Shown: positions 3,729-27,639 of the stretch, one piece after another
How the letters are laid out: every line of letters starts with the position of its first letter
How positions within the stretch are numbered: position 1 is the first letter of the stretch
From: an uncultured Candidatus Saccharibacteria bacterium
GTDB taxonomy: Bacteria; Patescibacteriota; UBA1384; DTJR01
Direction: 5' to 3'
Assembly (NCBI GenBank): GCA_964487045.1
Contig: CAZAOT010000003.1
Coordinates: 72,983-136,982, forward strand
DNA: 64,000 bases
The notes under the pieces: generated by a model
Told to the model about the DNA's origin: nothing
Database searches by the model: none
Seen by the model: the letters and a program-made list of their open reading frames with translations, nothing else
Program-made: the position numbers and the translations under genes

Positions 3729-4154
3729 TTATGAAGCGTCTTCTTTCGTTTCAACGTATCTGCCAAGATCATCACGATCTTCAGCCTTGGCGCCCTTTGG
3801 CAATAGTTTTACTGAAATTTTAAATTTTCGAGTCGAGCCGTCTTGATCGGTGATCATGTCAGTTTTCTTTTCATTATAAAAATCCATCAACTCGACCGAG
3901 AGAATATCTCTTAGGGTCTTTATCTCATCCAGGTTTTCCCTAATGTCTTCGGCGAGCTTGGCATTTCCTTCTTGATTAAAAATTGCATCTCTGACTTCTT
4001 TGCGTTTTTTTGCAGCCGATTTTGCCTCCTCGGCAATTTGAGTGTAGGAGGCATCATTTTCAAGGGCGGAGCGAAGTAGCTCTTTAGCTTTTTTATTTTC
4101 TTCTTCTAGTTTTTCAATAATTCCGATTCTTTCTTTGATGACCGATAAATCCAT
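3729..4154 (-). CDS. hypothetical coiled-coil protein
   Basis: ATG at 4154 lies 5 nt after GGAGCGGAGG. The track start at 4208 falls inside the structured leader. The sequence is K/E-rich and helical. Confidence 0.65.
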   Translation of the reverse strand: MDLSVIKERIGIIEKLEEENKKAKELLRSALENDASYTQIAEEAKSAAKKRKEVRDAIFNQEGNAKLAEDIRENLDEIKTLRDILSVELMDFYNEKKTDMITDQDGSTRKFKISVKLLPKGAKAEDRDDLGRYVETKEDAS

Positions 4155-4290
4155 AATTGCCTCCGCTCCTTGTCCAGCCCTTCGCGAAGGGCTGGACCGG
4201 AAGTCCACCTGGAGCGAAATCTATTTGCAGATTTCTTAAATTAAGAATACTGCAAGAGATTATGCGAAGGTGGACACGCTTATTTTTTAC
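4155..4290 (-). promoter_or_regulatory. structured GC-rich 5' leader (member L3 of GGACTTCCGG...GGAGCGGAGG family)
   Basis: Extended -10 TGTTACAAT lies near 4298-4290. A long-range stem GTCCACCT/AGGTGGAC is present. A 12-bp palindromic hairpin GTCCAGCCCTTC/GAAGGGCTGGAC sits directly before the SD. Confidence 0.5.
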
Positions 4291-6990: not shown

Positions 6991-7130
6991 TAAATCTCCT
7001 CAAGTTTAGGTCCTTCGATTCCTGCCCCTCTACCTGACGCACTGCAATAACAGGACGGAGTCAGTTTTGCAGTAAGGAATGGTGTGGGGTGGTCAATATA
7101 TTTTCTAATTGATTGTTGATCTAGTTCCAT
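6990..7130 (-). CDS. upstream mini-ORF (46 codons): DeoC-like N-terminus (..YIDH) fused to conserved tail PTPFLTAKLTPSCYCSASGRGA
   Basis: ATG at 7130 lies 4 nt after AAGGAGGG. The ORF is in frame through the 68-nt element. Its TAA overlaps the deoC ATG as TAATG at 6992-6988. Confidence 0.45.
   Translation of the reverse strand: MELDQQSIRKYIDHPTPFLTAKLTPSCYCSASGRGAGIEGPKLEEI
7021..7088 (-). repeat. 68-nt conserved hairpin element, copy 1 (inverted relative to copy at 13990-14057)
   Basis: CCCACACCATTCCTTACTGCAAAACTGACTCCGTCCTGTTATTGCAGTGCGTCAGGTAGAGGGGCAGG. I counted 59 of 66 positions identical to copy 2. The stem is CTGCAAAAC/GTTATTGCAG. Confidence 0.85.
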
Positions 7131-8581: not shown

Positions 8582-8611
8582 ATTTATCTAAGATTAACAT
8601 TTTGTTTCATA

Positions 8612-8656
8612 AATAAAAAAGAAAGCCCGGGCGCTCCACTGGGGAGGGCTCGGGCT
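8612..8656 (-). terminator. intrinsic terminator of cassette 4
   Basis: Arms AGCCCGGGC (8624-8632) and GCTCGGGCT (8648-8656). TTTCTTTTTT follows on the minus strand. Confidence 0.8.
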
Positions 8657-8678
8657 TGATGAGGCGTGGTAGCGGGTG

Positions 8679-8939
8679 CTACCGGAGGTTTCGGCGCTGA
8701 TCCGCGGTGGGGTTCTTGCCCACGTTTGAGTTGCCGACCGTCCGCTTTCGCACGATCCAGTCGGCAAGGAGCACGAAGGCGCTGATCGTGGCAGTGATGG
8801 CAGTCATGTAGAGCGTCGGCTTGCTCTTAAACATGATGCCAAAAGCGATGAAAAGCGGGGTAGTGGGGAAGAGGAAGAATTTGAACAATCTCCTCTTTCC
8901 CTTGGTGAGAAAAGACTTCGGCTTGAGTGACTTCATCAT
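8679..8939 (-). CDS. small membrane protein (2 predicted TM), GC-rich cassette 4
   Basis: 86 aa with two hydrophobic stretches and basic termini. GC-rich, last gene before the terminator. Confidence 0.55.
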   Translation of the reverse strand: MMKSLKPKSFLTKGKRRLFKFFLFPTTPLFIAFGIMFKSKPTLYMTAITATISAFVLLADWIVRKRTVGNSNVGKNPTADQRRNLR

Positions 8940-8953
8940 AGTCCTCCCTGTTT

Positions 8954-10074: not shown

Positions 10075-10149
10075 GGGCCTGTAGCTCAGTGGTAGAGCAG
10101 TTGCCTTTTAAGCAACGTGTCGTGGGTTCGATACCCACCAGGCCCTCCA
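10075..10149 (+). tRNA. tRNA-Lys (anticodon UUU), CCA encoded
   Basis: Hand-folded cloverleaf. Acceptor stem GGGCCTG/CAGGCCC, D stem GCTC/GAGC, anticodon stem GTTGC/GCAAC with loop CTTTTAA, T arm GTGGG-TTCGATA-CCCAC. 75 nt in total. Confidence 0.92.
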
Positions 10150-12216: not shown

Positions 12217-12386
12217 GACGACTCTGTTTTAAAAGTGAAGATTACGGAACTTTTTTTATAATAATTAGGATTGACTTTTTTGTAATAAACACAAGAATTG
12301 GGATATCATTAAGTTATTAGTAATAATAAAATATCCCAGTCACATTTCACCCTCTCGCAATATTCTTAATCTAAGAAATTTGCGAA

Positions 12387-12404
12387 CCTGCCTACCGGCA
12401 GGCA
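12387..12404. repeat. GC-rich palindromic hairpin CCTGCCTACCGGCAGGCA (inverted copy of 10022-10041)
   Basis: 18-nt match to the reverse complement of 10022-10041. Confidence 0.7.
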
Positions 12405-12422
12405 AGTAGGGATCAAAGTGAC

Positions 12423-12477
12423 GGGACTTCCGGAATTGCTTCCTGCCTTGGAGCGCAATTCTCGGAGCGGAGGAAAT
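12423..12477 (+). promoter_or_regulatory. SD-sequestering 5' leader L1 (GGGACTTCCGGAATTGC...GCAATTCTCGGAGCGGAGG)
   Basis: CCGGAATTGC pairs with GCAATTC-N-CGG, and the stem runs into the first GGAG of the SD. About 85% identical to leader L2 at 21435-21490. Confidence 0.55.
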
Positions 12478-12975
12478 ATGGCAAAGCCAACTAAATACGC
12501 AACTCTAATCTGTTTTGTGCTCATGATAGTCGCTGCGATATGCGCCTATATTGGTTATCGCAATCAATCAGCGATTGTTATTGTCCTAGGTCTATTGCCA
12601 ACGGTTATTTATGAAGTCTATCGAACAGAAGGCGAATCAACCCGTGCTTCAAGTTGGCTGATGTTGTTTGTGCTGGTAGCCGAAGCAATCTTAATTTTGT
12701 TTAAGATCAATTTTGATCTCGGGCAATATCTTGGACAATCTGATGCAATAATTGGTGGATCAGTAGTGCCACTTGGCGATATAAAGATTTTGGCTCCAGC
12801 AATTATGGCTCTACTCTCAGTAATTTTATTTACCCGAACAGCCGGAATATATACAAAGTGGTTATCGGTGATAATTTTTGCAGTATCTTTCGTGCTTATT
12901 TATGTTATTTCTCCCGAAGGGTTTTCGGGACTTATAAAATCTGCCATTAATCAGGTTATTTATTGGGGATTCTAA
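12478..12975 (+). CDS. small polytopic membrane protein
   Basis: ATG at 12478 lies 4 nt after GGAGCGGAGG. The track start at 12418 lies inside the leader. Five hydrophobic helices. Confidence 0.65.
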   Translation: MAKPTKYATLICFVLMIVAAICAYIGYRNQSAIVIVLGLLPTVIYEVYRTEGESTRASSWLMLFVLVAEAILILFKINFDLGQYLGQSDAIIGGSVVPLGDIKILAPAIMALLSVILFTRTAGIYTKWLSVIIFAVSFVLIYVISPEGFSGLIKSAINQVIYWGF

Positions 12976-13953: not shown

Positions 13954-14070
13954 ATGATTCGAAACGTTGCGATTATTGCTCATGTAGACCCCACACCGCT
14001 CCTTACTGCAAAACGGATTCCATCCTGTTATTGCAGTGCGTCAGGTCGAGGGGCGAGAGATGACAAATAA
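13954..14070 (+). CDS. upstream mini-ORF (38 codons): TypA-like N-terminus (MIRNVAIIAHVD) fused to conserved tail PTPLLTAKRIPSCYCSASGRGA
   Basis: In frame through the 68-nt element, with TAA at 14068-14070. The nearest GGAGG is 17 nt upstream, so translation is uncertain. Confidence 0.35.
   Translation: MIRNVAIIAHVDPTPLLTAKRIPSCYCSASGRGARDDK
13990..14057 (+). repeat. 68-nt conserved hairpin element, copy 2
   Basis: CCCACACCGCTCCTTACTGCAAAACGGATTCCATCCTGTTATTGCAGTGCGTCAGGTCGAGGGGCGAG. The stem is 14006-14014 paired with 14027-14036. Confidence 0.85.
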
Positions 14071-15902: not shown

Positions 15903-15917
15903 AACGCACTATCTCGA

Positions 15918-15946
15918 TTGACCTTTTTTGAAAAAATAGGTATAAT
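15918..15946 (+). promoter_or_regulatory. promoter TTGACC-17-TATAAT for cassette 6 operon
   Basis: TTGACC at 15918-15923 and TATAAT at 15941-15946. Confidence 0.65.
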
Positions 15947-15988
15947 TTTCTATTGCTCTTTAACAAACAGGGAAAACGAAAGGAAGAC

Positions 15989-16219
15989 ATGCCGACGTCA
16001 ATCGAGACTAAGGCGAGGAATATCGATAGACACTTGCCGGAGATGATGTGCTTGGCGCACTCGTCCGGCTTGCCTTCGATCATCCTTCCGTTTGGCACTT
16101 TTGACCAGCCAACTCAGGAGAAGCTGCGTGACCTAGTGGCCGAGTACGCCAAAGGCAAGGGCCACAAGACGCGCAAGTTCTTGCATCAGACGCGCCTCTA
16201 TCTCGAGGTGAGTATCTAA
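15989..16219 (+). CDS. hypothetical protein (76 aa), GC-rich cassette 6 gene 1
   Basis: ATG at 15989 after AAAGGAAG. GC-rich. No family recognised. Confidence 0.55.
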   Translation: MPTSIETKARNIDRHLPEMMCLAHSSGLPSIILPFGTFDQPTQEKLRDLVAEYAKGKGHKTRKFLHQTRLYLEVSI

Positions 16220-16226
16220 GGAGGGC

Positions 16227-16448
16227 ATGATGCCCAGGATAACCAGAACTGATTCGGCCGGCAATGCTTTGGAGATCGACGGCGCCAAGGTCGTCGCCGG
16301 GCCTTACGGCTCTCGGGCTGAGGTTGTTGTTGCGCACGCAGAGGTTGGGATGGAGTTGGCTTGTCGTTCGGGACGAATTTCAAGCGGGGTCTTTATTGAG
16401 CTCAATGGAAAGCACTATGCTGTCGAGGTCGCGACACAATTGATGTAA
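16227..16448 (+). CDS. hypothetical protein (73 aa), cassette 6 gene 2
   Basis: AAGGAGGG lies 2 nt before the ATG. There is a 7-nt gap to gene 1. Confidence 0.55.
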   Translation: MMPRITRTDSAGNALEIDGAKVVAGPYGSRAEVVVAHAEVGMELACRSGRISSGVFIELNGKHYAVEVATQLM

Positions 16449-16473
16449 GTTGGCCAAAATAGGGAGGCAGATT

Positions 16474-17739
16474 GTGGACAAAGAAGCGATCCAAGGCGCC
16501 CGCAGGGCGCTTCTGCTCAAGAAGCTTGAAGTAGCATCAACGACCAAGGAATGCACCCTTGCGTTCCAGGGTCTCAAGCTCTACAGAGATGACCTTTCGA
16601 TTGTCGCCACTCGTAAGAGAGCGATTGAGCTCGCAGCTTCGGCAGGCGACATGGATGAGGTTCGTCGCTTTCCGTATGATGTGGGTATCTTCTCTCTGGG
16701 AGATCAGGCTTCCGAGTTCTTTCGTAAGGCCATGCTGCTTTGCAGGCCTGAAGAAGTATACGACTTCACAGGCAACTTCGGCTATTACGCCGATGAAGTT
16801 GTTAGCTTCCTTGTCGAGGGGCTTACCGATCCGCTCAAGCTGACTCGACTAGCGATGCGACTCGGAGCGGAGGGTCTGCTTGAGCGCGGACAGGAAGTGA
16901 TCGCTCGGGCTGCTGAACTGGCTGCAAGCTGGGAAGTGTGCGGTTATGTCGGGACGATACACTATGCGCCGCTTCCGACAGGGTTTCTGACCATGGCCGT
17001 CCTTCTCGCTGAGGGGCAGAAGGGTTACGATGCTCCTCTCGAAGTTTGTGGGTGGATGAAGGCTTCGCTCAACGACCCGCTCGAATTCAGACAAGCAGCG
17101 GCTGTTGCCGAGCTGCTTGATGCGCCAAACAAGCGTATCAGGCGGGTAGCCGGAGAGCGGATCAGGCAGGCTTACCAGGAGAAACTGAGCGGCCAAGATG
17201 GCGACTTCTATATCCAAAGCGCCTGGAACGTCGTTTGCGATGCCCGCGATGCGCTTCCGGAACTGGCTGCAGAGCTGACCGCTGATCTCGTGGTGCGTCT
17301 GACAGATGCGGTACCAGCCTGTCAGGACTTTTCGGAGGCAAAGTCGCATCTTGAAGTCGCTTCCGCAATGGAGGACTTCGGGATCGATGGAGTCTACTGG
17401 CCGGCAGCCATGCGTGCGATGGAGCTGGCAGAGGGCTGTGATGATATCCTGGCGTTGGTGCGCCTTGGCATTCATGTCCAGGAGCTCACCGAGGCTGTCC
17501 TGGTAATGGCTGCAACCGAAGATGATATCATTGCAGTCATACAGCGCAACCCGAACTTCTCTGGTGAGTGGACGTTGCCTCTTTGCGAGCGGATCTTCGA
17601 CTATCGGCGCCAGAGGGCGCAGACGATCGAGGACTTCATGATTCTGCATCACCTGACCAAGGACCCGGTCAAACTGGCCGAGGTCGAGGATCGCATCCAG
17701 GAGCTCATCGCTCCATACCATACCGAGCCTGAGGAGTAA
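16474..17739 (+). CDS. hypothetical all-alpha protein (about 421 aa), cassette 6 gene 3
   Basis: GTG at 16474 lies 6 nt after GGGAGG and is in frame with the track start at 16450. The sequence is acidic and Leu/Ala-rich. A terminator follows. Confidence 0.65.
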   Translation: MDKEAIQGARRALLLKKLEVASTTKECTLAFQGLKLYRDDLSIVATRKRAIELAASAGDMDEVRRFPYDVGIFSLGDQASEFFRKAMLLCRPEEVYDFTGNFGYYADEVVSFLVEGLTDPLKLTRLAMRLGAEGLLERGQEVIARAAELAASWEVCGYVGTIHYAPLPTGFLTMAVLLAEGQKGYDAPLEVCGWMKASLNDPLEFRQAAAVAELLDAPNKRIRRVAGERIRQAYQEKLSGQDGDFYIQSAWNVVCDARDALPELAAELTADLVVRLTDAVPACQDFSEAKSHLEVASAMEDFGIDGVYWPAAMRAMELAEGCDDILALVRLGIHVQELTEAVLVMAATEDDIIAVIQRNPNFSGEWTLPLCERIFDYRRQRAQTIEDFMILHHLTKDPVKLAEVEDRIQELIAPYHTEPEE

Positions 17740-17763
17740 CTTCCCCTGGTTCATGGCTCTACA

Positions 17764-17800
17764 ACGGCTCCCGGCCTAGTGCTTGGGAGCCGTTTTCTTT
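17764..17800 (+). terminator. intrinsic terminator of cassette 6
   Basis: ACGGCTCCC/GGGAGCCGT stem followed by TTTTCTTT. Confidence 0.85.
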
Positions 17801-17852
17801 ACCCTATTACCTTGACAAATGATTCTGATCAGCTAGAATCATACTCGTCTAT

Positions 17853-18962
17853 ATGGATAATATTCTCGAGCCTCCCAGTACGCATAGGCGAGGCCTAAAA
17901 ATAAATAGAATACGACAAAGCGCTCCAAGCGCTTTTGCCGGTTTTGGATTAAAAATCCTCAATAATTTGGAAAACTTGCGTCTATCGATCAGGAAACTGA
18001 TCTTTTTTATTAGGGGTCATATTATTTCGTTTAAAGAATTTGCTAAATTGCACGGTGTTAACCGCTCGCTTGCTTATAAATTTGCGATTGTAGCGGCCAT
18101 TGCACTTCTTCCAGTTCTCTCTAAAGTCACAGCTGAAGATCAGGCTTATGAAGATGTAATTCACTATAGTCAGACAATTGACCCGGTTGAGTCTGCTCGA
18201 TTCGCAGTTTATTTTTCCGGCTATACTCCTGGGCTTTATATTGATGCCGACCAAGTTGCCCTAAATGCAGTTACTAATAACGAGTCATATACTCTGGAGC
18301 AGCAGTTAGCGGTGAATCAAGGTAAGGATTACGCGGTTGAGGGTCGTCAGGAACCGACATATGTTCTAAAATCAGGCGAAACGATTGCTGACGTTGCTTC
18401 TAAGTTTGACTTACATGTCGGAACTCTAGTTGATGCCAACGGACTTGATCCGGTGAATTTGAAGAATGTGAGACCAGGTACAACCTTGATGATTCCTTCA
18501 TCGGATACCAATACTTCAAATGACTGGCTGATTGCAATCAACAAAGATGAAGCTGAGAAGAAGCAAAAAGCGGCTGAGGAAGCAGCCAAAAAGAAAGCGG
18601 AACAGGCCAAGAAGGTAGCTTCAGCGAGCAACAATGTAACAGCTACTGGAACGGTTGCCGGAGCAACGACAAGAAGGCAGGTCAGTTCTGAAGTGACCGT
18701 TATCGGAACTTCTTATTCACAGTGTGTTCCTTGGGCGAGAGAAAATTCCGGAATTGCAATTCAAGGATATGCGGGCAATATTTCTGCTACTCAATCAGAG
18801 CCGAGGGTTGGGGGAGTAGCTCTTGATCGATTTTATGGCCATGCCTCGGTGGTAGTAGAGGTTGGCTCTGATTATATAGTTGTACATGAAGCCAACTGGA
18901 TCCATGGCAAGATTACCAAAAGAAAAGTTTCTAAAGATGCTATCCGCGGATACGTGTATTAG
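17853..18962 (+). CDS. LysM + CHAP-domain peptidoglycan hydrolase, membrane anchored
   Basis: LysM segment YVLKSGETIADVASKFDLHVGTLVDANG...LMIP. C-terminal CHAP-like segment QCVPWARE...GHASVV...HEANW. TTGACA-16-TAGAAT lies upstream at 17811-17838. Confidence 0.75.
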   Translation: MDNILEPPSTHRRGLKINRIRQSAPSAFAGFGLKILNNLENLRLSIRKLIFFIRGHIISFKEFAKLHGVNRSLAYKFAIVAAIALLPVLSKVTAEDQAYEDVIHYSQTIDPVESARFAVYFSGYTPGLYIDADQVALNAVTNNESYTLEQQLAVNQGKDYAVEGRQEPTYVLKSGETIADVASKFDLHVGTLVDANGLDPVNLKNVRPGTTLMIPSSDTNTSNDWLIAINKDEAEKKQKAAEEAAKKKAEQAKKVASASNNVTATGTVAGATTRRQVSSEVTVIGTSYSQCVPWARENSGIAIQGYAGNISATQSEPRVGGVALDRFYGHASVVVEVGSDYIVVHEANWIHGKITKRKVSKDAIRGYVY

Positions 18963-19009
18963 TAAGTTTTCAGTAAAAATTAAGAAATTACCTGGTATAA
19001 TCAAGCTCG

Positions 19010-20476: not shown

Positions 20477-20851
20477 ATGCCGAGGGATTCGATTCTCTAC
20501 GAAAAAGCCAGGGCGAGGTGGGAGTATGCTTCACATCTTCCATCTCGCAGTACAGTCAGGCAGTATTCGCTCAAGTGTTTCGCATTAGTATACCCGGTCG
20601 AAGTTTTGCGGGAATACTGGCGTGTAGACGCGTTGTCGCGCCAGAGTCTAATGGTATCGTCTCACAGCTTTGCCCCTTCTCCCGCTGAACTTGCAGCCAT
20701 GGCAGAAGGGCGTGACCGTAATGAACGGCGCGCAAATCAAGCCAGGGCGAGACTCGAAAGGATGGCGACGGAGCACGGGGTGGACCTAGATGCGATGGCT
20801 GATGATATCGCATTCGTTTGGCACAACTGGAGTCTGCTTGAGCTCGAGTAG
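20477..20851 (+). CDS. hypothetical protein (124 aa), GC-rich cassette 7
   Basis: ATG at 20477 lies 6 nt after GGAGGGAG. The C-terminal half is Arg/Ala-rich. Confidence 0.55.
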   Translation: MPRDSILYEKARARWEYASHLPSRSTVRQYSLKCFALVYPVEVLREYWRVDALSRQSLMVSSHSFAPSPAELAAMAEGRDRNERRANQARARLERMATEHGVDLDAMADDIAFVWHNWSLLELE

Positions 20852-20870
20852 CTCAAACCAGTTGCGTCTC

Positions 20871-20902
20871 AAGGCGAGCGCTATGCGTTCGCCTTCATTT
20901 TT
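20871..20902 (+). terminator. intrinsic terminator of cassette 7
   Basis: AAGGCGAGCG/GCGTTCGCCTT stem followed by CATTTTT. Confidence 0.7.
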
Positions 20903-20918
20903 AGTAGATGATAAAAAG

Positions 20919-21434
20919 TTATATTCTTCTTCTGGAGCTTAGAATAACAATTACGATAATCGGTGCGAGGAGCCAAAGGGTATAATAATCTTTTAGGAAA
21001 TGAACGAAGTGAGTTTGGGAGATAATTTGTGCTTGTGAGGCATCTGGCATGTATTTAAAGATTGTGGCAGAGATTAAAATGCCAGTAATGACTGAATAGA
21101 AGAAGGTCTCGAGCGGTGCCATTAAGGAGTGATCTCTTCCTACTGAGATATCAGCTTTAGAGGCTACCAAGGATACTACGAGCAGAAATAATACTATTTT
21201 GATTGTTGCTGGCGATGCGTCAGAAGTGATCCAGGTATTAGCAACGGTGAGCTTGCCTTCAAAAAACTGCTTGATCGGGTCCGCCCATACCGAAACGATC
21301 ACCATTCCCATATAACAGGCTAGAAGAGCGGACATAATCTTGTCCCGCTGCATCATAAAACCATATAAAACGGTGATAGCAACAAATATACCTAAAAACA
21401 AATCCCAAGTTGGTACGGTTGACGCTACTTGAAT
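20919..21434 (-). CDS. small polytopic membrane protein; start uncertain (ATT 21434 after GGAGCGGAGG, or TTG 21476 as in track)
   Basis: Five hydrophobic helices. There is no ATG/GTG/TTG at SD distance. An in-frame ATT lies 5 nt after GGAGG. Confidence 0.6.
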   Translation of the reverse strand: MQVASTVPTWDLFLGIFVAITVLYGFMMQRDKIMSALLACYMGMVIVSVWADPIKQFFEGKLTVANTWITSDASPATIKIVLFLLVVSLVASKADISVGRDHSLMAPLETFFYSVITGILISATIFKYMPDASQAQIISQTHFVHFLKDYYTLWLLAPIIVIVILSSRRRI

Positions 21435-21590
21435 ATTCCCCTCCGCTCCGTGAATTGCGCTCTTCGTCGGAAGCAATTCCGGAAGCCCCGCATCAATTCA
21501 CGAAGCGAAACACGAATGAATAATTCGAGTGGAGCATTCGAGAATTCGGTGCTGGGGCATTTCATTATTTTCCCTAACAAAAACATTATA
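21435..21590 (-). promoter_or_regulatory. long structured 5' leader (L2) with SD-sequestering stem; riboswitch/attenuator candidate
   Basis: Extended -10 TGGTATAAT near 21592-21584. GCCCC...GGGGC closing stem and CGAATG/CATTCG hairpin. CGCTTCGTGAATTG pairs with CAATTCACGGAGCG, which overlaps the SD. Confidence 0.5.
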
Positions 21591-21620
21591 CCAAATTCTT
21601 ATATAACTTTTACAATAGTG

Positions 21621-23942
21621 CTATTTAGATTCAATAAATATTGGTGATTGAGTGATGTTTATTGATTTTGAATTGGCTTCTTTTATGTTGCCTAGCTTGT
21701 CGGTTATTGTAACTAGTCCGCTTAAAACGCTGGATAGATCGATATCTGTAGAACAAGTTCGATCTTCATATCTCCATGCTTTGTTGATCTCGTTGTGAGC
21801 ATCGCTGTCTGTTGGGTTTTTAACATTCCAATACGGTTCACACCAAGCAGAGTATTTTTTCTTACCATCGTTGTCGGTAATTTTTATGATAAATAACGGG
21901 TTAACTTCCTCGTGGTTATTTGCAGGTTTCTGGATAAATTCAATTTTTGAAGCATATTTTATATTATTAGCTAAGATCCTATATGCATCAAATGATAACT
22001 TTTTCTGATAACCGTTATTTTGAATCGAATATATACCTTTTAGGAGGTGGTGGCATAATGAATTCTGATTGTTGATTTCGTAATATCCTTCGGAATTTGT
22101 TTGAGATGGGCACGTTCTTTCTTGTATTGTGTCAGCAGAACTATTGCGATATCCATTCCATGATAATCCGCTTATCCCAAGCGATGAAATTGTTAAAAAT
22201 CTTTTAATTAGATCATCTGATTGAAAATTTTGCGAAAATGTCATCGAAAAACCAGTTGCTACACCATTATTATCATCGATATATTTACTATCGCTTGGAG
22301 ACCCGATTTCTGTAGCGAATATTGGCTTATTGCAATTATTTCTTCCTGAGCAAAGGGTGTCGTAAATTTCCATATTTTTCTGCGTTCTATCCCAATATTG
22401 TGTATAGCCCATGAATCTATTTGGATGAAGGTTGATATGAAATTCATGAGCATCGACAAAGTTATTGTATGAATTTTGTTTTAATACTTCGAAATATGAA
22501 AGGTTATTCATACTAGTCTTGTCCGGGTTCATAAATCCGGCGCTTACCACCCGACAGTCACTGCACATTTTTTTGACAACTGAGCGCAGGCCCTGGCTGA
22601 GATCATAAGCTACTCCTTCATAAATGACTTGCTCTCCCTCCAGGCTAGCTAGTATATTTCCTTGAGTATCTTTGTATGAGCCTGTAGTGATAAGCGAAAG
22701 TGCTTCTGCCGGTATGCCAAAGGCGCTGTCGGAATTAAAGTTGCCATCGGGTTCGTTCCATATTTGCCAATACTTGATGCTATCTTTATATAAATTAAGT
22801 CTAGGTAAAACCATTCCCTTAAAATAATGCTCTCTTACTAATGCCTCTAACTTATTCCAGTCGGCGTTTGCTGGTCGAGTGTTGATATTCCCGTTTGGAG
22901 AATACCCACTATATAGCCTAATATCTTGCCTAACCTTGTCGTAATGTGTATATTTTTGTCCTGAACTGTCCAGAATATCGCTACCCCTATCGGTTTGAAT
23001 TGTAATTCGAGGGAGGAAGTTTCCCATCAAAATCCGTCCATCTCGTTTAAAATTTTGGGCGGCAGCTAGGTCATTATTTCTTTCTGATCTTTTTTCGTCA
23101 AAGTTGATATATCTTAAAAAATTTACTTGTAGCTCTGAAATGTCGCTAGTGAAATTTGTTCCTTGGGTGTCAGTATTGAGTACGGGGGAAGGGTTGAACC
23201 CAATTAAATATTTACGATTTAAGTATGATTCAGATGCATCTGATATTTCTGTTATTTTTACATTTGGCGTAAAGAAATAAACCCAAACATTAGATGCGCT
23301 AGTCAGTCTCTGAGCGTTATATTCGTTTGCAATTGTAATCTTTTTAAAAACAATTGACTTATTTTCGCTAACTGCGCTGTAAATATTTGAAGAAATTGCT
23401 TTTTGATCAATAAGGGCATCTGCTGAGAAGATATTTCCACTGGATAATTTAAAGCTGGTTTTTTTAAGGAAATCCTGTTTTGTTTCTGGCTTAGAGGGAG
23501 AAACTATATGCCAACCAGGTCGATAGTTACTCTGAATATTAGATAGAGTTGTTTTATTTATCTTTGGAAAAGTCCGACCAGAATTTTTATTATATGTTAG
23601 ATATGAGAGTTTAGGATTTAGGCCAATATCTGAGATACAGGGCATCTCCTGAACTACGGCATAACCCTGGCAGTTATTTGATAGATAAGTCCACCCGGTG
23701 TTGTTAGTATTTGGATCGTTGTAAGTGTATATTAAAACGCCTGAATCAAGAACCTCTCTTTGCGTAATAGAATTTAGATCCTGCCCGTTTATCACGCTCC
23801 ACCCAGGTGGAATAGATACAGAGTTGGAGTCTGAATCAGCAAAGATATTGTTTTTTAACAAGAAATGAATCCCGATTAAAAGAATTAGGACGACAGAAGC
23901 CAATAAAACCGATTTCCTAAAAATTTTCTTTTTAACTATCAC
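21621..23942 (-). CDS. signal-anchored protein with putative glycoside-hydrolase (TIM-barrel, NEP motif) domain
   Basis: N-terminal anchor. YWQIWNEPDG resembles the acid/base motif of clan GH-A enzymes. The rest is unassigned. Confidence 0.5.
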   Translation of the reverse strand: MIVKKKIFRKSVLLASVVLILLIGIHFLLKNNIFADSDSNSVSIPPGWSVINGQDLNSITQREVLDSGVLIYTYNDPNTNNTGWTYLSNNCQGYAVVQEMPCISDIGLNPKLSYLTYNKNSGRTFPKINKTTLSNIQSNYRPGWHIVSPSKPETKQDFLKKTSFKLSSGNIFSADALIDQKAISSNIYSAVSENKSIVFKKITIANEYNAQRLTSASNVWVYFFTPNVKITEISDASESYLNRKYLIGFNPSPVLNTDTQGTNFTSDISELQVNFLRYINFDEKRSERNNDLAAAQNFKRDGRILMGNFLPRITIQTDRGSDILDSSGQKYTHYDKVRQDIRLYSGYSPNGNINTRPANADWNKLEALVREHYFKGMVLPRLNLYKDSIKYWQIWNEPDGNFNSDSAFGIPAEALSLITTGSYKDTQGNILASLEGEQVIYEGVAYDLSQGLRSVVKKMCSDCRVVSAGFMNPDKTSMNNLSYFEVLKQNSYNNFVDAHEFHINLHPNRFMGYTQYWDRTQKNMEIYDTLCSGRNNCNKPIFATEIGSPSDSKYIDDNNGVATGFSMTFSQNFQSDDLIKRFLTISSLGISGLSWNGYRNSSADTIQERTCPSQTNSEGYYEINNQNSLCHHLLKGIYSIQNNGYQKKLSFDAYRILANNIKYASKIEFIQKPANNHEEVNPLFIIKITDNDGKKKYSAWCEPYWNVKNPTDSDAHNEINKAWRYEDRTCSTDIDLSSVLSGLVTITDKLGNIKEANSKSINITQSPIFIESK

Positions 23943-23966
23943 TTATCTAATAGTAACAGACTAGAT

Positions 23967-24599
23967 TTATCTCTGCCACCAAGATGATTTCTTTTGTTTA
24001 TCGAGATCTTTGAGCTTTTGCCATAAATCTTTTTGTTCTTTAGTAAGACGCTCTGGGAAACGGATTCTAATAATTATAATTAAATCACCTTTCTGACCAT
24101 TTCTGGTTGCTCGTCCTTTTTCTTTGATTCGGTATTGTGTTCCGTCTTGAGTCCCAGGATGTATCTGGAGGGTGATTTTCTCGTCCCCTACTTGAAGGTC
24201 GAATTCATCTCCAAGTACAGCTTGGGCAGGAGAGATTTCAACTTCTGCTTGTACGGTAGCGAAAGCATTTGAAAAAAAGTCTCCGAAAATGTCGCCTAAG
24301 CCACCCATATTGCCAAAATTGAATTCAAAACCTTCACCGCCAAAGTCATAACCACCAGATTGATAACCACTAAATCCGCCTTGGCCGCCGCTACCAGAGA
24401 AGCCACTTTGGCCAAAACGATCATATTGGGCTCTTTTTTGGGGATCGGAAAGAACCTGGTATGCTTCGTTAATTTTTTTAAATTCGGCCTCATCGCCTCC
24501 TTTATCCGGATGATGCTTCAAAGCAAGCTTTCGATAAGCTTTTTTTATCTCGTCTGCGGAGGCGTTTTTGTCTATGCCGAGTAGTTTGTAGTAATCCAT
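23967..24599 (-). CDS. J-domain co-chaperone (short DnaJ/CbpA-like, no zinc finger)
   Basis: YYKLLGI...[14 protein letters not shown] is followed by a G/F-rich region. The Cys-rich domain is absent. Confidence 0.88.
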
Positions 24600-24708
24600 T
24601 TTTATATTATTTTTGGGTGTTAAAATTAATTAATCCGCATCTGCGGATAACCTACTGCCAAAGCTAATTTTACCTATTTAGGAGCGGGATGTAAAGAGGG
24701 CTTTACTT

Positions 24709-25512
24709 TTAGAACATATCTTCTTGACGGGTAGGGGTCTCGCTTAGCAACGCCTGAGCAGTTGAAGTTGCAGTGGCCTGAGCATTGGCCGCTACTGATC
24801 CAGAAACTGATGGCTGAGTGTTTAGAATCTCATTAGCAGCGGTATTTCCGGCATTATCGATAACATTTATGCTCCAGCCAGTATCCATAGGATAAAGCTT
24901 AGTCTGAGCAATTATTCCAGGATCGATGAGTTTAAATTTCTCAGTCTGAGTAAATTGCTCATAAGCTGCTGAGAATAGATTTAAGCTACCCGTTTGGTTT
25001 GTCTGACACTTAAGATCGGATGCAATGTCACGTCTAGCGATAAAACTTCTAGTTTTTTTAACCGAACCATAGGAATTAAGTTCAACTAACCAATAATAAT
25101 CCTTAGAAAAATCGTCGTTATAGAATAGGAAACCCTGAATATTCTGGCTTGTTAATTGTGCGCCGTAGAATGTAATAATCGTTCCACAATATTTTGCTCC
25201 ACCCTTTAAAGCTCTCTGCGCGTCTTCTAGGGCTAATTGATAATTTGTCTTGTAAGTATCGTCAATTTGAGTCTTCTCTTCGACAAAACTATCAATTTGC
25301 TGATAGCTTTTAGGCTGACTAGAATTCTGATTGCTTGCATTAGAAACGGAGGAGCTTGTCGCCGTTGCCGCCAGGCTGCCGGCTGCAGCAGGCAGAGCTT
25401 CAGAAGCAATATTAGAACTATTAACCTTGGACGTCGTATCTGATTTTTTAGTGCAGGCGCTCAAAGAAAGCGATATCACTACTACAGCAAAAACAAACAC
25501 AAATTTTTTCAT
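24709..25512 (-). CDS. lipoprotein, unknown function
   Basis: Lipobox LSLSAC, followed by a Ser/Ala-rich linker. Confidence 0.65.
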   Translation of the reverse strand: MKKFVFVFAVVVISLSLSACTKKSDTTSKVNSSNIASEALPAAAGSLAATATSSSVSNASNQNSSQPKSYQQIDSFVEEKTQIDDTYKTNYQLALEDAQRALKGGAKYCGTIITFYGAQLTSQNIQGFLFYNDDFSKDYYWLVELNSYGSVKKTRSFIARRDIASDLKCQTNQTGSLNLFSAAYEQFTQTEKFKLIDPGIIAQTKLYPMDTGWSINVIDNAGNTAANEILNTQPSVSGSVAANAQATATSTAQALLSETPTRQEDMF

Positions 25513-25613
25513 TATTTATATTCTACCAAAAGACCCCGGAACCTGCACACGGCCTGGAAGCGGCTACAACCAGCTCGATAATGCAGGATTCCGGGGTCTT
25601 TCTTTTAAAGAAC

Positions 25614-27512
25614 TTACTTTTCTTCTTTGGTTTCCTCAGTCTTTTCTTCTGCTTTGTCAGATTTTTCCTCTGACTCTTCAGCCTTCTCCTCTGCTTTTTC
25701 TTCAGGAGCAGCGGCTGAGTAAAGCTCTTGCCCAACCTTCTGGATAGTTTCAGAAAGTGCATCTGTTGCCGACTTGATCTTGTCGGACTCTTCGCCCTTC
25801 AAAGCTTCTTTAACTGCTTCAACTTTCTCTTCAACTTCCTTCTTGGTTTCGGCTTTGACTTTATCGCCAGCGTCTTTTAGGGCTTTTTCACTAGAATAGA
25901 CAAGTGTCTCGGCAGTATTTCTAGTTTCTATCTCTTCCCTTTTCTTTTTATCTTCCTCGGCGTGGGTTTCAGCATCTTTGCGCATTTTTTCTACTTCTTC
26001 TTCTGAGAGACCACTTGAAGCGGTAATGGTAATTTTTTGTTCTTTTCCGGTTGCCTTATCCTTGGCCTTAACGTTTAGGATTCCATTTGCGTCTATATCG
26101 AAGCTGACCTCAATTTGTGGTACACCACGAGGTGCTGGGGGAATGCCATCGAGAGTGAATCTTCCTAGAGTCCTATTGTCAGCAGCCATCTCTCTTTCAC
26201 CTTGAAGGACATGGATTTCTACTTGTGGTTGATTGTCAGCTGCAGTAGAAAAGACCTGGCTTTTCGATGTTGGGATGGTTGTATTTCTCTCAATAAGCTT
26301 AGTCATAACTGATCCTAGAGTCTCAATTCCAAGCGATAGAGGAGTGACATCTAGTAGGAGGATATCTTTAACTTCTCCTGCTAAGACTCCACCCTGAATG
26401 GCAGCACCGAGGGCAACTGCTTCGTCTGGGTCAACGCCCTTAGATGGTTCTTTGCCGAATATTTCCTTAACCTTGTCTTGAACTGCTGGCATTCTAGTCA
26501 TACCTCCGACCAAGATTACCTCATCGATATCCTTGGCTTCGACACCGGCATCTTTCATTGCTTTCTGGCAAGGTTTGGTGGTTTTTTCAATGAGGTCGCC
26601 AACTAGAGAAAGAAGCTTGGCTCTATTGATAGTCATGACCAAATGTTTTGGTCCAGAAGCGTCAGCGGTGATAAATGGAAGGTTTATTTCGGCTTCTTGC
26701 TTGCTTGAAAGCTCAATCTTGGCTTTTTCGGCTGCTTCTCTGATTCTTTGAAGTGATGCGGCATCAGCTGTTAGGTCGACACCTTGATCTTTTTTGAACT
26801 CATCAACAATGAAGTCCATAATCTTTTGGTCAAAGTCATCTCCTCCTAAGTGAGTGTCTCCGTTAGTTGCTTTGACTTCTAGGACATCGCCGCCAACTTC
26901 TAGAATAGTGATATCGAAAGTTCCGCCTCCAAGGTCGAAGACAGCTACTTTACCTTCTTGTTTCTTATCAAGTCCATATGCAAGAGCTGCAGCAGTTGGT
27001 TCGTTTATAATTCTCTTTACATCAAAACCAGCAATTTTACCTGCATCTTTGGTAGCTTGACGCTGAGAGTCATTGAAATAGGCCGGTACGGTGATAACTG
27101 CTTCTGTTACCGCCTCACCCAAGTAGTCCTCTGCGTCCTTTTTAATTTTTTGCAAAATAAAGGCTGAGACCTCCTGAGGTGAATAGTCCTTACCAGCAAT
27201 TTTTACTTCAACCGAATTGTTCTTGCCTTCTACGATTTCATAAGGCATTAATTTTTTGTCTCTTGTCACCTCTTCGTCGTCAAAACGTCGTCCGATCAAA
27301 CGCTTGACCGAAGACACGGTGTTTTTTGGGTTGGTAACTGCTTGGCGCTTAGCTAGTTGGCCAACCAGTCTTTCTCCCGACTTAGTTTCCGCGACCATAG
27401 AAGGAACCAGCTTCCCGCCTTCTGCTGATGGCATGAGCTTGGGCTTTCCGCCTTCGATAACAGCGGCAGCCGAGTTGGTCGTTCCGAGGTCGATTCCGAT
27501 TATTTTACCCAT
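25614..27512 (-). CDS. dnaK: molecular chaperone DnaK (Hsp70)
   Basis: [17 protein letters not shown] and the other Hsp70 signatures. ATG at 27512 follows AAAGGAAG. The track start at 27560 adds 16 unlikely residues. Confidence 0.97.
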
Positions 27513-27639
27513 ATTGCTTCCTTTCTTCGCTTTAGGATTAGGTTTGCGCTGCTTATGCAACCCACCTATAAATTTTTATTAACTAAAATAATTGTAAAGT
27601 AGACTTTACATTTTGTCAAGAGTCAGTTACTTAATAGGT

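Follow-up and report, generated by a model that had tools for sequence, protein, structure and literature searches.

Architecture of the Locus

The window, meaning the whole stretch of 64,000 nt that was analyzed, carries on its minus strand a gene for a conserved CPR membrane protein, and the leader flagged in the earlier note is the 5' untranslated region of the mRNA of this gene. The features of the locus, with the basis on which each was delimited, are as follows:

21585..21593, minus strand: extended -10 promoter TGGTATAAT (sequence)
21559..21578, minus strand: A-rich unstructured 5' segment GUUAGGGAAAAUAAUGAAAU of the leader (alignment with relatives)
21485..21558, minus strand: type A core, a 74-nt irregular hairpin (four distinct sequences, RNAalifold, MFE)
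21447..21483, minus strand: P4 hairpin UUCCGGAAUUGC...GCAAUUCACGGA (local MFE and compensatory change)
21438..21444, minus strand: Shine-Dalgarno (SD) sequence GGAGGGG (GGAGG conserved 4-5 nt 5' of the AUH codon)
21432..21434, minus strand: probable start codon AUU (codon conservation and protein N-terminus)
20919..21434, minus strand: membrane protein conserved in CPR bacteria, 171 aa when read from AUU, with approximately five predicted helices (homologues)

Both TGGTATAAT and GGAGGGG were located on the minus strand, in agreement with the earlier note, which had placed a leader between an extended -10 and the coding start. Nearly all of the 44 distinct orthologous upstream regions have a TGNTATAAT box at the corresponding position; the extended -10 at 21593-21585 was absent from the output of a generic -35/-10 scan. 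Transcription probably starts at about 21578, and the leader would then comprise approximately 145 nt from this position through the SD and the AUU. Upstream of it lies a gene of 773 aa, the stop codon of which is at 21621-21623. The stretch GTTAGGNAAAAT of the A-rich 5' segment is conserved in the alignment with the related loci L054 and L051, both of which are devoid of the structured block. The leader had also been described as richer in GC than its surroundings, and GC values of 0.49-0.52 across 21400-21550, as against 0.26-0.40 in the flanks, bear this out. Folding of the whole leader yielded -49.1 to -53.3 kcal/mol, with a z score of about -2.4 to -2.5. Shuffled controls, which had been proposed as a check, rarely folded as well: 2 of 200 shuffles equaled the whole leader, and none of 200 equaled the 74-nt core.

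According to a coding or attenuation reading of the locus, the flagged stretch would be a 53-aa ORF (21586-21425) acting as a leader peptide, or else a terminator-based attenuator. One frame is indeed open across the whole leader in the window. However, the homologues differ by single-nucleotide indels that change the frame, they share no start codon, and the ORF has no words in common with any of 5.8 billion proteins. As for attenuation, which the earlier note had considered a candidate role, a search of the minus strand from 20850 to 21750 found no G+C hairpin followed by a U-tract, and the sequence 3' of P4 is ACGGAGCGGAGG. Since no terminator is present in the leader, it is not a transcription attenuator, and we consider this whole reading hardly tenable.

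The Downstream Gene and Its Start Codon

The codon at the start position is ATT in 24, ATA in 11 and ATC in nine of the 44 distinct orthologous regions, and never ATG. This AUH codon is found 4-5 nt 3' of a strong GGAGG (5 nt in the window), and in most of the 44 regions no in-frame canonical start occurs between the promoter and the AUH codon. The alignment of 22 homologues revealed that the protein is conserved from I-Q-V-A-S-T-V-P-T-W-D onward. Judging from these sequence comparisons, coding most likely starts at AUU 21434-21432. The TTG at 21476, the start of the listed ORF, was ruled out by the conserved N-terminus and the AUH codon. Only two orthologous regions were found to have an ATG directly upstream of the AUH codon. 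Gene callers place the starts of the homologues at assorted internal codons, presumably because the genuine start is AUH. As this start is present with or without a leader, it would be a property of the gene and not of the RNA.

AUU, AUA and AUC are codons of the kind discriminated against by IF3 (PMC9723500; PMC5499595). The situation is reminiscent of infC-type AUU initiation under IF3 (PMC9723500; PMC5499595) in that a start of this kind seems to be found across the whole membrane-protein family, but the gene in question codes for a membrane protein and not for a translation factor. A family-wide AUU, AUA or AUC start would be a rare case outside infC.

Homologues of the membrane protein number 81, with identities of 59-88%, and their sources call them Berkelbacteria, WS2 or 'Saccharibacteria'. 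The earlier note had hoped to guess a ligand from the transporter family of the protein; no Pfam or NCBIfam match was obtained, and the AlphaFold2 model is poor (pLDDT 58.8). The gene usually follows dnaK-grpE-dnaJ. In most genomes the order is dnaK, a grpE-sized gene, dnaJ and the membrane-protein gene (window 21621-27560, minus strand; L091, L093, L096, and L100); in the window and L054 a gene of 773 aa, and in L051 one of 761 aa, is inserted between the last two.

A Conserved RNA Fold

Approximately 70 homologous loci, designated here by L numbers, were compared. The type A core could be followed in four distinct sequences, namely those of the window, L009, L006 (identical to L047) and L002b (identical to L017b). 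It consists of P1, GCCCC(A)GCA / UGCGGGGC; P3, AAUUC(U)CGAA(U)GC / GCUUCG(U)GAAUU; two AC/GU pairs between P3 and P2; and P2, which reads CGAAU-UAUUC-AUUCG in the window and CGRAU-UAUUC-AUYCG across the four sequences. The terminal loop UAUUC is invariant in all four, and the internal loops are nearly so. In the 24 pairs of the core, 98.9% of the cells are paired and four pairs are changed on both sides, statistics that are thin with four distinct sequences and to which the invariant P1 contributes no information; slid controls were 30-42% paired. The same fold was returned by RNAalifold without guidance. Taken alone, the core adopts the conserved fold as its MFE structure (-28.1 kcal/mol, z -3.85), as do the full leaders of L009, L006, and L002b; for the full leader of the window, this fold lies 0.1 kcal/mol above the MFE. 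The minus strand should be the functional one, because on the opposite strand A-C mismatches would take the place of the G-U pairs. The core is 80-91% identical among the four sequences, compared to 67-74% for the adjacent CDS, the third positions of which (~0.43) are near saturation.

P4 begins one base 3' of the type A core and ends 2 nt before the SD. In its lower stem, CUUCC-like bases are paired with the first GGAG. The local MFE is -15.3 kcal/mol (z -3.25), and a compensatory change was observed in L009, where GAAUUGC/GCAAUUC is replaced by GAAUCGC/GCGAUUC. A different second hairpin is found in the place of P4 in L006 and L002b. The SD lies outside both conserved hairpins and is a member of no conserved helix. 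Its mean unpaired probability is 0.39-0.62 when P1 is formed and 0.09 in the MFE fold specific to the window.

On the evidence of these alignments, the structure of the leader is genuine and under selection as RNA. The earlier description of a multi-helix leader was right as to a structured, non-random leader; the helices drawn there give way to a rod-like hairpin followed by a second hairpin.

Two further contacts were inspected by eye and discarded: a third helix joining the single-stranded 5' segment to the region around the start codon, which is good in L001 and L053 and weak or absent in the window and the others, and a kissing contact of the UAUUC loop with GAAUA at the start, found in the window only. 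It was also observed that the P2 hairpin at 21527-21513 (minus strand) holds AUUAUUCA, the very sequence (GGG-AUU-AUU-CAA) with which many orthologues of the downstream gene begin their start region. This match may be a coincidence, as it is also present in the type A copy before an unrelated gene of L002.

Alternative Pairings and the Switch Model

The earlier note had proposed three helices and, from their overlap, the logic of a translational riboswitch. The first, GCCCC (21558-21554) with GGGGC (21489-21485), is paired in all four homologues. The second, CGAATG/CATTCG, is 83% paired across homologues, which is not above column shuffles. The third, in which the 14-nt segment CGCTTCGTGAATTG (21507-21494) pairs with CAATTCACGGAGCG (21457-21444), does exist in the window; it is not conserved, being 68% paired and again not above column shuffles. 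The bases of the second and third helices are used by P3, P2, and P4, which are 98-100% paired and show compensatory changes. In the window, the MFE fold (-52.5 kcal/mol) uses the 14-nt helix and pairs CCCC with the GGGG of the SD, and only there is it isoenergetic with the conserved fold. In L009 the 14-nt helix has three broken pairs, and in L006 and L002b there is no equivalent 3' arm. Mutually exclusive pairings are thus real for the window sequence but are not a conserved property, and the switch model drawn from them is not supported, given an alternative fold peculiar to the window and an SD outside the conserved helices. Neither a conserved SD-hiding pairing nor a terminator was found that could serve as an expression platform.

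When the whole window was scanned with Rfam 15 (4227 models), only a tRNA at 10075-10146 passed the gathering threshold. A permissive scan of 21300-21750 gave four chance-level matches (E 1.7-5), far below gathering. That the earlier note could match the leader to no known class is in line with these scans.

Rod-like aptamers with internal loops occur among known riboswitch classes, and NMT1/xanthine, folE/THF-II and nhaA-I/Li+ are translational riboswitches of this kind. With them the type A leader shares a single irregular hairpin of 50-80 nt, conserved internal loops, covarying stems and a position directly 5' of the ribosome-binding site, sometimes of membrane proteins. It differs from them in that there is no Rfam 15 match, the SD is outside the conserved structure, no alternative pairing is conserved, no coherent set of regulated genes is apparent, and the element is dispensable in the nearest relatives. 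In a translational riboswitch, the 74-nt hairpin would be the aptamer for a small molecule or an ion, and the ligand would stabilize P1 and leave the SD free, which would otherwise be hidden by CCCC and the 14-nt helix. The conserved fold with covariation and conserved loops in four sequences (P1 being invariant), the location directly upstream of the SD of small membrane proteins, and the two window folds that differ by 0.1 kcal/mol and by an SD accessibility of 0.09 versus 0.39 would all suit such a device. Against it stand, besides the differences already listed, the loss of the alternative fold in the homologues and the distribution described below: the hairpin is missing from most orthologues and replaced by another cassette in further close relatives, and the genes downstream have no known or shared function. 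No association with one pathway or transport function emerged from the three of 44 orthologous regions and the one unrelated 71-aa gene that carry it, and no family could be assigned to the proteins concerned. Ligand sensing as such is still conceivable because the hairpin loops are strictly conserved, but the odds appear to be well against a riboswitch of this design.

Distribution among Relatives

Type A (GCCCCAGCAYC...UGCGGGGC) precedes the orthologue in the window, L009, and L006 (=L047), i.e., in three of the 44 distinct upstream regions, and was found once before an unrelated gene, in L002 (=L017), where it lies on the other strand before a gene that is located downstream of bipA and codes for a 71-aa single-pass membrane protein. 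The four type A sequences were made into a covariance model (R1), which revealed no further copies in the window or in approximately 340 kb of related loci, and nine further orthologue contigs contained no new type A. Exact-pattern matches in IMG/VR (33) were rejected as chance occurrences in GC-rich phage DNA, with R1 scores of at most 20 bits.

Conservation upstream of orthologues, on which the earlier note had staked its proposal, largely fails, since type A is missing before most of them, the closest syntenic relatives included. The latter (L051/L052 and L054/L055), with proteins 83-88% identical, exhibit a clean gap of approximately 120 nt at the structured block, even though L051 and L054 have the promoter, the start region and the large gene upstream (761-773 aa) in common with the window. 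No target duplication was seen at the borders of this indel in the alignment against L054 and L051. In about half of the 44 orthologous regions, only 18-43 nt separate the -10 box from the start.

Leaders of another form, type B, occupy exactly the same site in relatives of 81-86% protein identity (L053, L010, L001, L012, and L013). They consist of GUCCC-A-CUYCG, a variable hairpin and CGAGGGAC, followed by a UUUCGRGUC hairpin and AGCGGAGG, and thus form a two-hairpin block in which eight of the 21 predicted pairs are compensatory. In L048, a type A P1 (GCCCC/GGGGC) was found joined to the body of a type B leader. The type B model (R2) matches the type A leaders weakly, with E values of 6e-4 for the window and of 1.7e-6 and 9e-5 for others; the grouping of types A and B in one family draws on short shared motifs and weak model scores.

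Some further observations concern these regions. Inspection by eye did not support a K-turn in the internal loop of type B, where tandem G-A pairs are missing. Most type B leaders would allow CUYCGC in P1 to pair with GCGGAG at the SD, at positions that hardly vary. Upstream of the orthologues of L004, L005, L026, L034, and L040, a hairpin (GAACAUU...AUGUUC) coincides with the predicted transcription start, and in L011 and L089 the promoter region is tandemly duplicated (tgctataat...tgctataat). An R2 match in L004 (4013-4086) adjoins a tRNA-like sequence.

Related Leaders in the Window

Two other leaders in the window were found to be related to the flagged one:

12334..12480, plus strand: related leader before the gene of an unrelated 165-aa membrane protein (ATG 12478) (sequence match and fold)
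4152..4277, minus strand: related leader before the gene of a 141-aa soluble coiled-coil protein (ATG 4154) (architecture and fold)

In the first, P1 is UCCC(A)GUCAC/GUGACGGGA and encloses a branched domain, and its P4 with the AGCGGAGG tail (12422-12473) matches 21490-21440 at 95-96% identity, the loop excluded. The fold of 12334-12480 has -58.6 kcal/mol (z -5.73). The orthologues of the 165-aa gene in L101 and L104 are not preceded by this leader. The second, at 4152-4277, consists of a P1 rod (GUCCACCU/AGGUGGAC), a UUCC junction, a P4 hairpin and the AGCGGAGG tail, and folds with -57.3 kcal/mol (z -7.14); R2 matches it weakly (4152-4280, E 1.3e-3). The leaders have in common a P1 base of the form G(C/U)CCC-A...GGG(G/A)C, a UUYC junction, a variable P4 and, often, the AGCGGAGG tail with the ribosome-binding site. 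The A after the P1 base is unpaired in type A, type B and the leader at 12334, and base-paired in the one at 4277. Both leaders also hold an inner hairpin, GCARUAUUCUUAAUYUAAGAAAUYUGC.

To judge from these shared elements, the flagged leader belongs to a group of related leader cassettes that are GC-rich and modular. The genes that follow them are unrelated, coding for multi-pass membrane, 71-aa single-pass, 165-aa membrane and soluble coiled-coil proteins. All four independent cassette sites are sense-oriented and abut the SD, with 64 kb of this genome covered.

An RNA thermometer tied to dnaK-dnaJ would mask the ribosome-binding site in the cold and melt on heat shock. Thermometers of this kind carry the SD and the start codon inside the last, imperfect hairpin. 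The leader resembles ROSE and fourU elements as a multi-hairpin 5' UTR beside heat-shock genes, with dnaK-grpE-dnaJ preceding the gene in most genomes, and the MFE fold of the window does pair the SD. However, the conserved helices include neither the SD nor the start, the long stems are rich in G-C, the same architecture precedes non-stress genes, and about half of the orthologues are without it. Moreover, SD accessibility computed from 10 to 55 C is flat for the window, falls for L009 and rises for L006 and L002b, so that no consistent melting is predicted in silico. We therefore regard a thermometer as very unlikely. No match to a CIRCE-like HrcA operator was seen by eye.

Mobile Repeat or Tuning Cassette

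The presence and absence of the cassettes and their exchange among close relatives raise the question of whether they are selfish interspersed repeats of the MITE or BOX kind, i.e., non-autonomous cassettes that move or recombine near gene starts and whose RNA structure is a by-product without function for the host. Related modular copies are certainly at hand, with three leaders in 64 kb, a near-identical P4 (95-96%) in two leaders of one genome, a clean indel and swapping. The copy most similar to the type A core (91%) stands beside the protein that is most distant (62%), a pattern at odds with vertical descent, and the cassettes are GC-rich elements in an AT-rich genome. The same genome also harbors a second family of elements (7024-7090 and 13988-14054), the copies of which interrupt duplicated fragments of the 5' coding ends of deoC and bipA.

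Short, modular, strongly folding intergenic elements that are co-transcribed with adjacent genes and variably present between close relatives are known from Neisseria, in the form of the Correia elements. The pneumococcal BOX, RUP and SPRITE repeats have these traits and behave similarly, and are thought to alter expression via their secondary structure (PMC3049150). Unlike both, every copy observed here runs in the sense direction and either ends at the SD or provides it, the copy number is apparently low, and the stems are compensatory. Compensatory changes and G-U pairs imply selection on the fold of the sense-strand RNA, which speaks against a mere by-product. So does the ending of all four independent sites exactly at the SD, in a test of orientation that is weak with 64 kb of genome, as well as the finding of a single type A copy in 64 kb and of none elsewhere in the ~340 kb of related loci. 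Neither terminal inverted repeats beyond the hairpin nor target-site duplications were seen. A selfish repeat is a serious rival, though on balance an improbable explanation.

We tentatively favor, with a probability of roughly 45%, the reading that the flagged leader is a modular 5'-UTR cassette of no established class, acting in cis to tune the initiation of translation and/or the stability of the mRNA. It is built from two independently folding modules, the sequence-constrained 74-nt rod-like hairpin and P4, with the SD and AUU kept outside the conserved helices. In this lineage, such cassettes lie in sense orientation directly upstream of the start codons of unrelated genes, and are swapped, or gained and lost, among close relatives. 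Acting in cis, the leader may set the efficiency of 30S loading at the weak AUU and/or shield the 5' end of the mRNA, and its conserved loops may be read by a common trans-acting factor; a metabolite-specific switch or a transcription attenuator is not the mode proposed. This reading is preferred because the cassette is dispensable and interchangeable, stands before unrelated genes, leaves the SD free and has no conserved switch partner or terminator. Two points weigh against it: the strict conservation of loops and sequence would better suit a specific ligand or protein partner than a generic stabilizer, and the isoenergetic SD-hiding fold makes a switch physically possible in the window.

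Stabilizing or processing hairpins in 5' UTRs are exemplified by the ompA 5' stem-loops and by RNase III-processed leaders. Stable hairpins between the transcription start and a free SD are common to these and to the cassette, and its stacked helix of approximately 26 bp is within the size range of RNase III substrates. Known stabilizers depend on a hairpin placed at the extreme 5' terminus, and their sequences are little conserved. In contrast, approximately 20 unstructured nt precede P1 here, and the loops are strictly conserved.

A more specific variant would treat the type A hairpin as the sensor domain of a hitherto undescribed, CPR-specific class of translational regulator, in which a shared platform (P1 base, P4, and SD tail) would receive interchangeable inserts (type A, type B, and others), with a small ligand or a dedicated RNA-binding protein for each, the regulon being one of small membrane and stress-linked proteins that includes the one with the AUH start. 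We consider this variant unlikely.

No description of the motif was found in the literature searched. The motif is new and belongs to a known kind, that of structured 5'-UTR cis elements or repeats; it is not demonstrably a new mechanism. Very little is known about gene regulation in CPR/Patescibacteria, organisms with tiny genomes that cannot be cultivated on their own, and a covarying leader RNA outside the Rfam families would offer a concrete, testable regulatory element for this group. The swappable architecture, together with clean presence and absence at near-identical loci, provides a natural experiment on the gain, exchange and loss of 5' UTRs. If the element were merely a selfish repeat, its relevance would be confined to CPR genome dynamics.

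Other Elements in the Window

The second family of GC-rich elements mentioned above comprises two copies of 67 nt that are 91% identical, at 7024-7090 (minus strand) and 13988-14054 (plus strand), and may form an H-type pseudoknot (ACUGCAA/UUGCAGU stem and CUGAC/GUCAG). Each copy was found inside a short uORF, the first 12-13 codons of which duplicate the N-terminus of the gene that follows. At the bipA site the uORF reads MIRNVAIIAHVD, continuing with PTP..., and the gene ...IRNVAIIAHVDHGK; at the deoC site ...SIRKYIDH in the uORF, again followed by PTP..., corresponds to ...NIVSYIDHT in the gene. The junction of the element is at GAC|CAC. The bipA orthologues of L101 and L104 are free of it, and the element resembles an insertion into the 5' coding end with target duplication.

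The segment 20390-20905 (plus strand; GC 50-62%) was considered as a large ncRNA and rejected, as it is occupied by a protein-coding gene that has a promoter, an SD and a terminator of its own. This gene codes for 124 aa from an ATG near 20477, with GGAGGGAGCGTC as the SD and the terminator at 20871-20895, and the protein belongs to no Pfam family; at this position relatives carry a gene of 227-235 aa. Finally, 8582-8953 and 15903-19000 have a GC content of approximately 52%, compared to approximately 37% for the genome, and contain small ORFs; these segments may be foreign islands.
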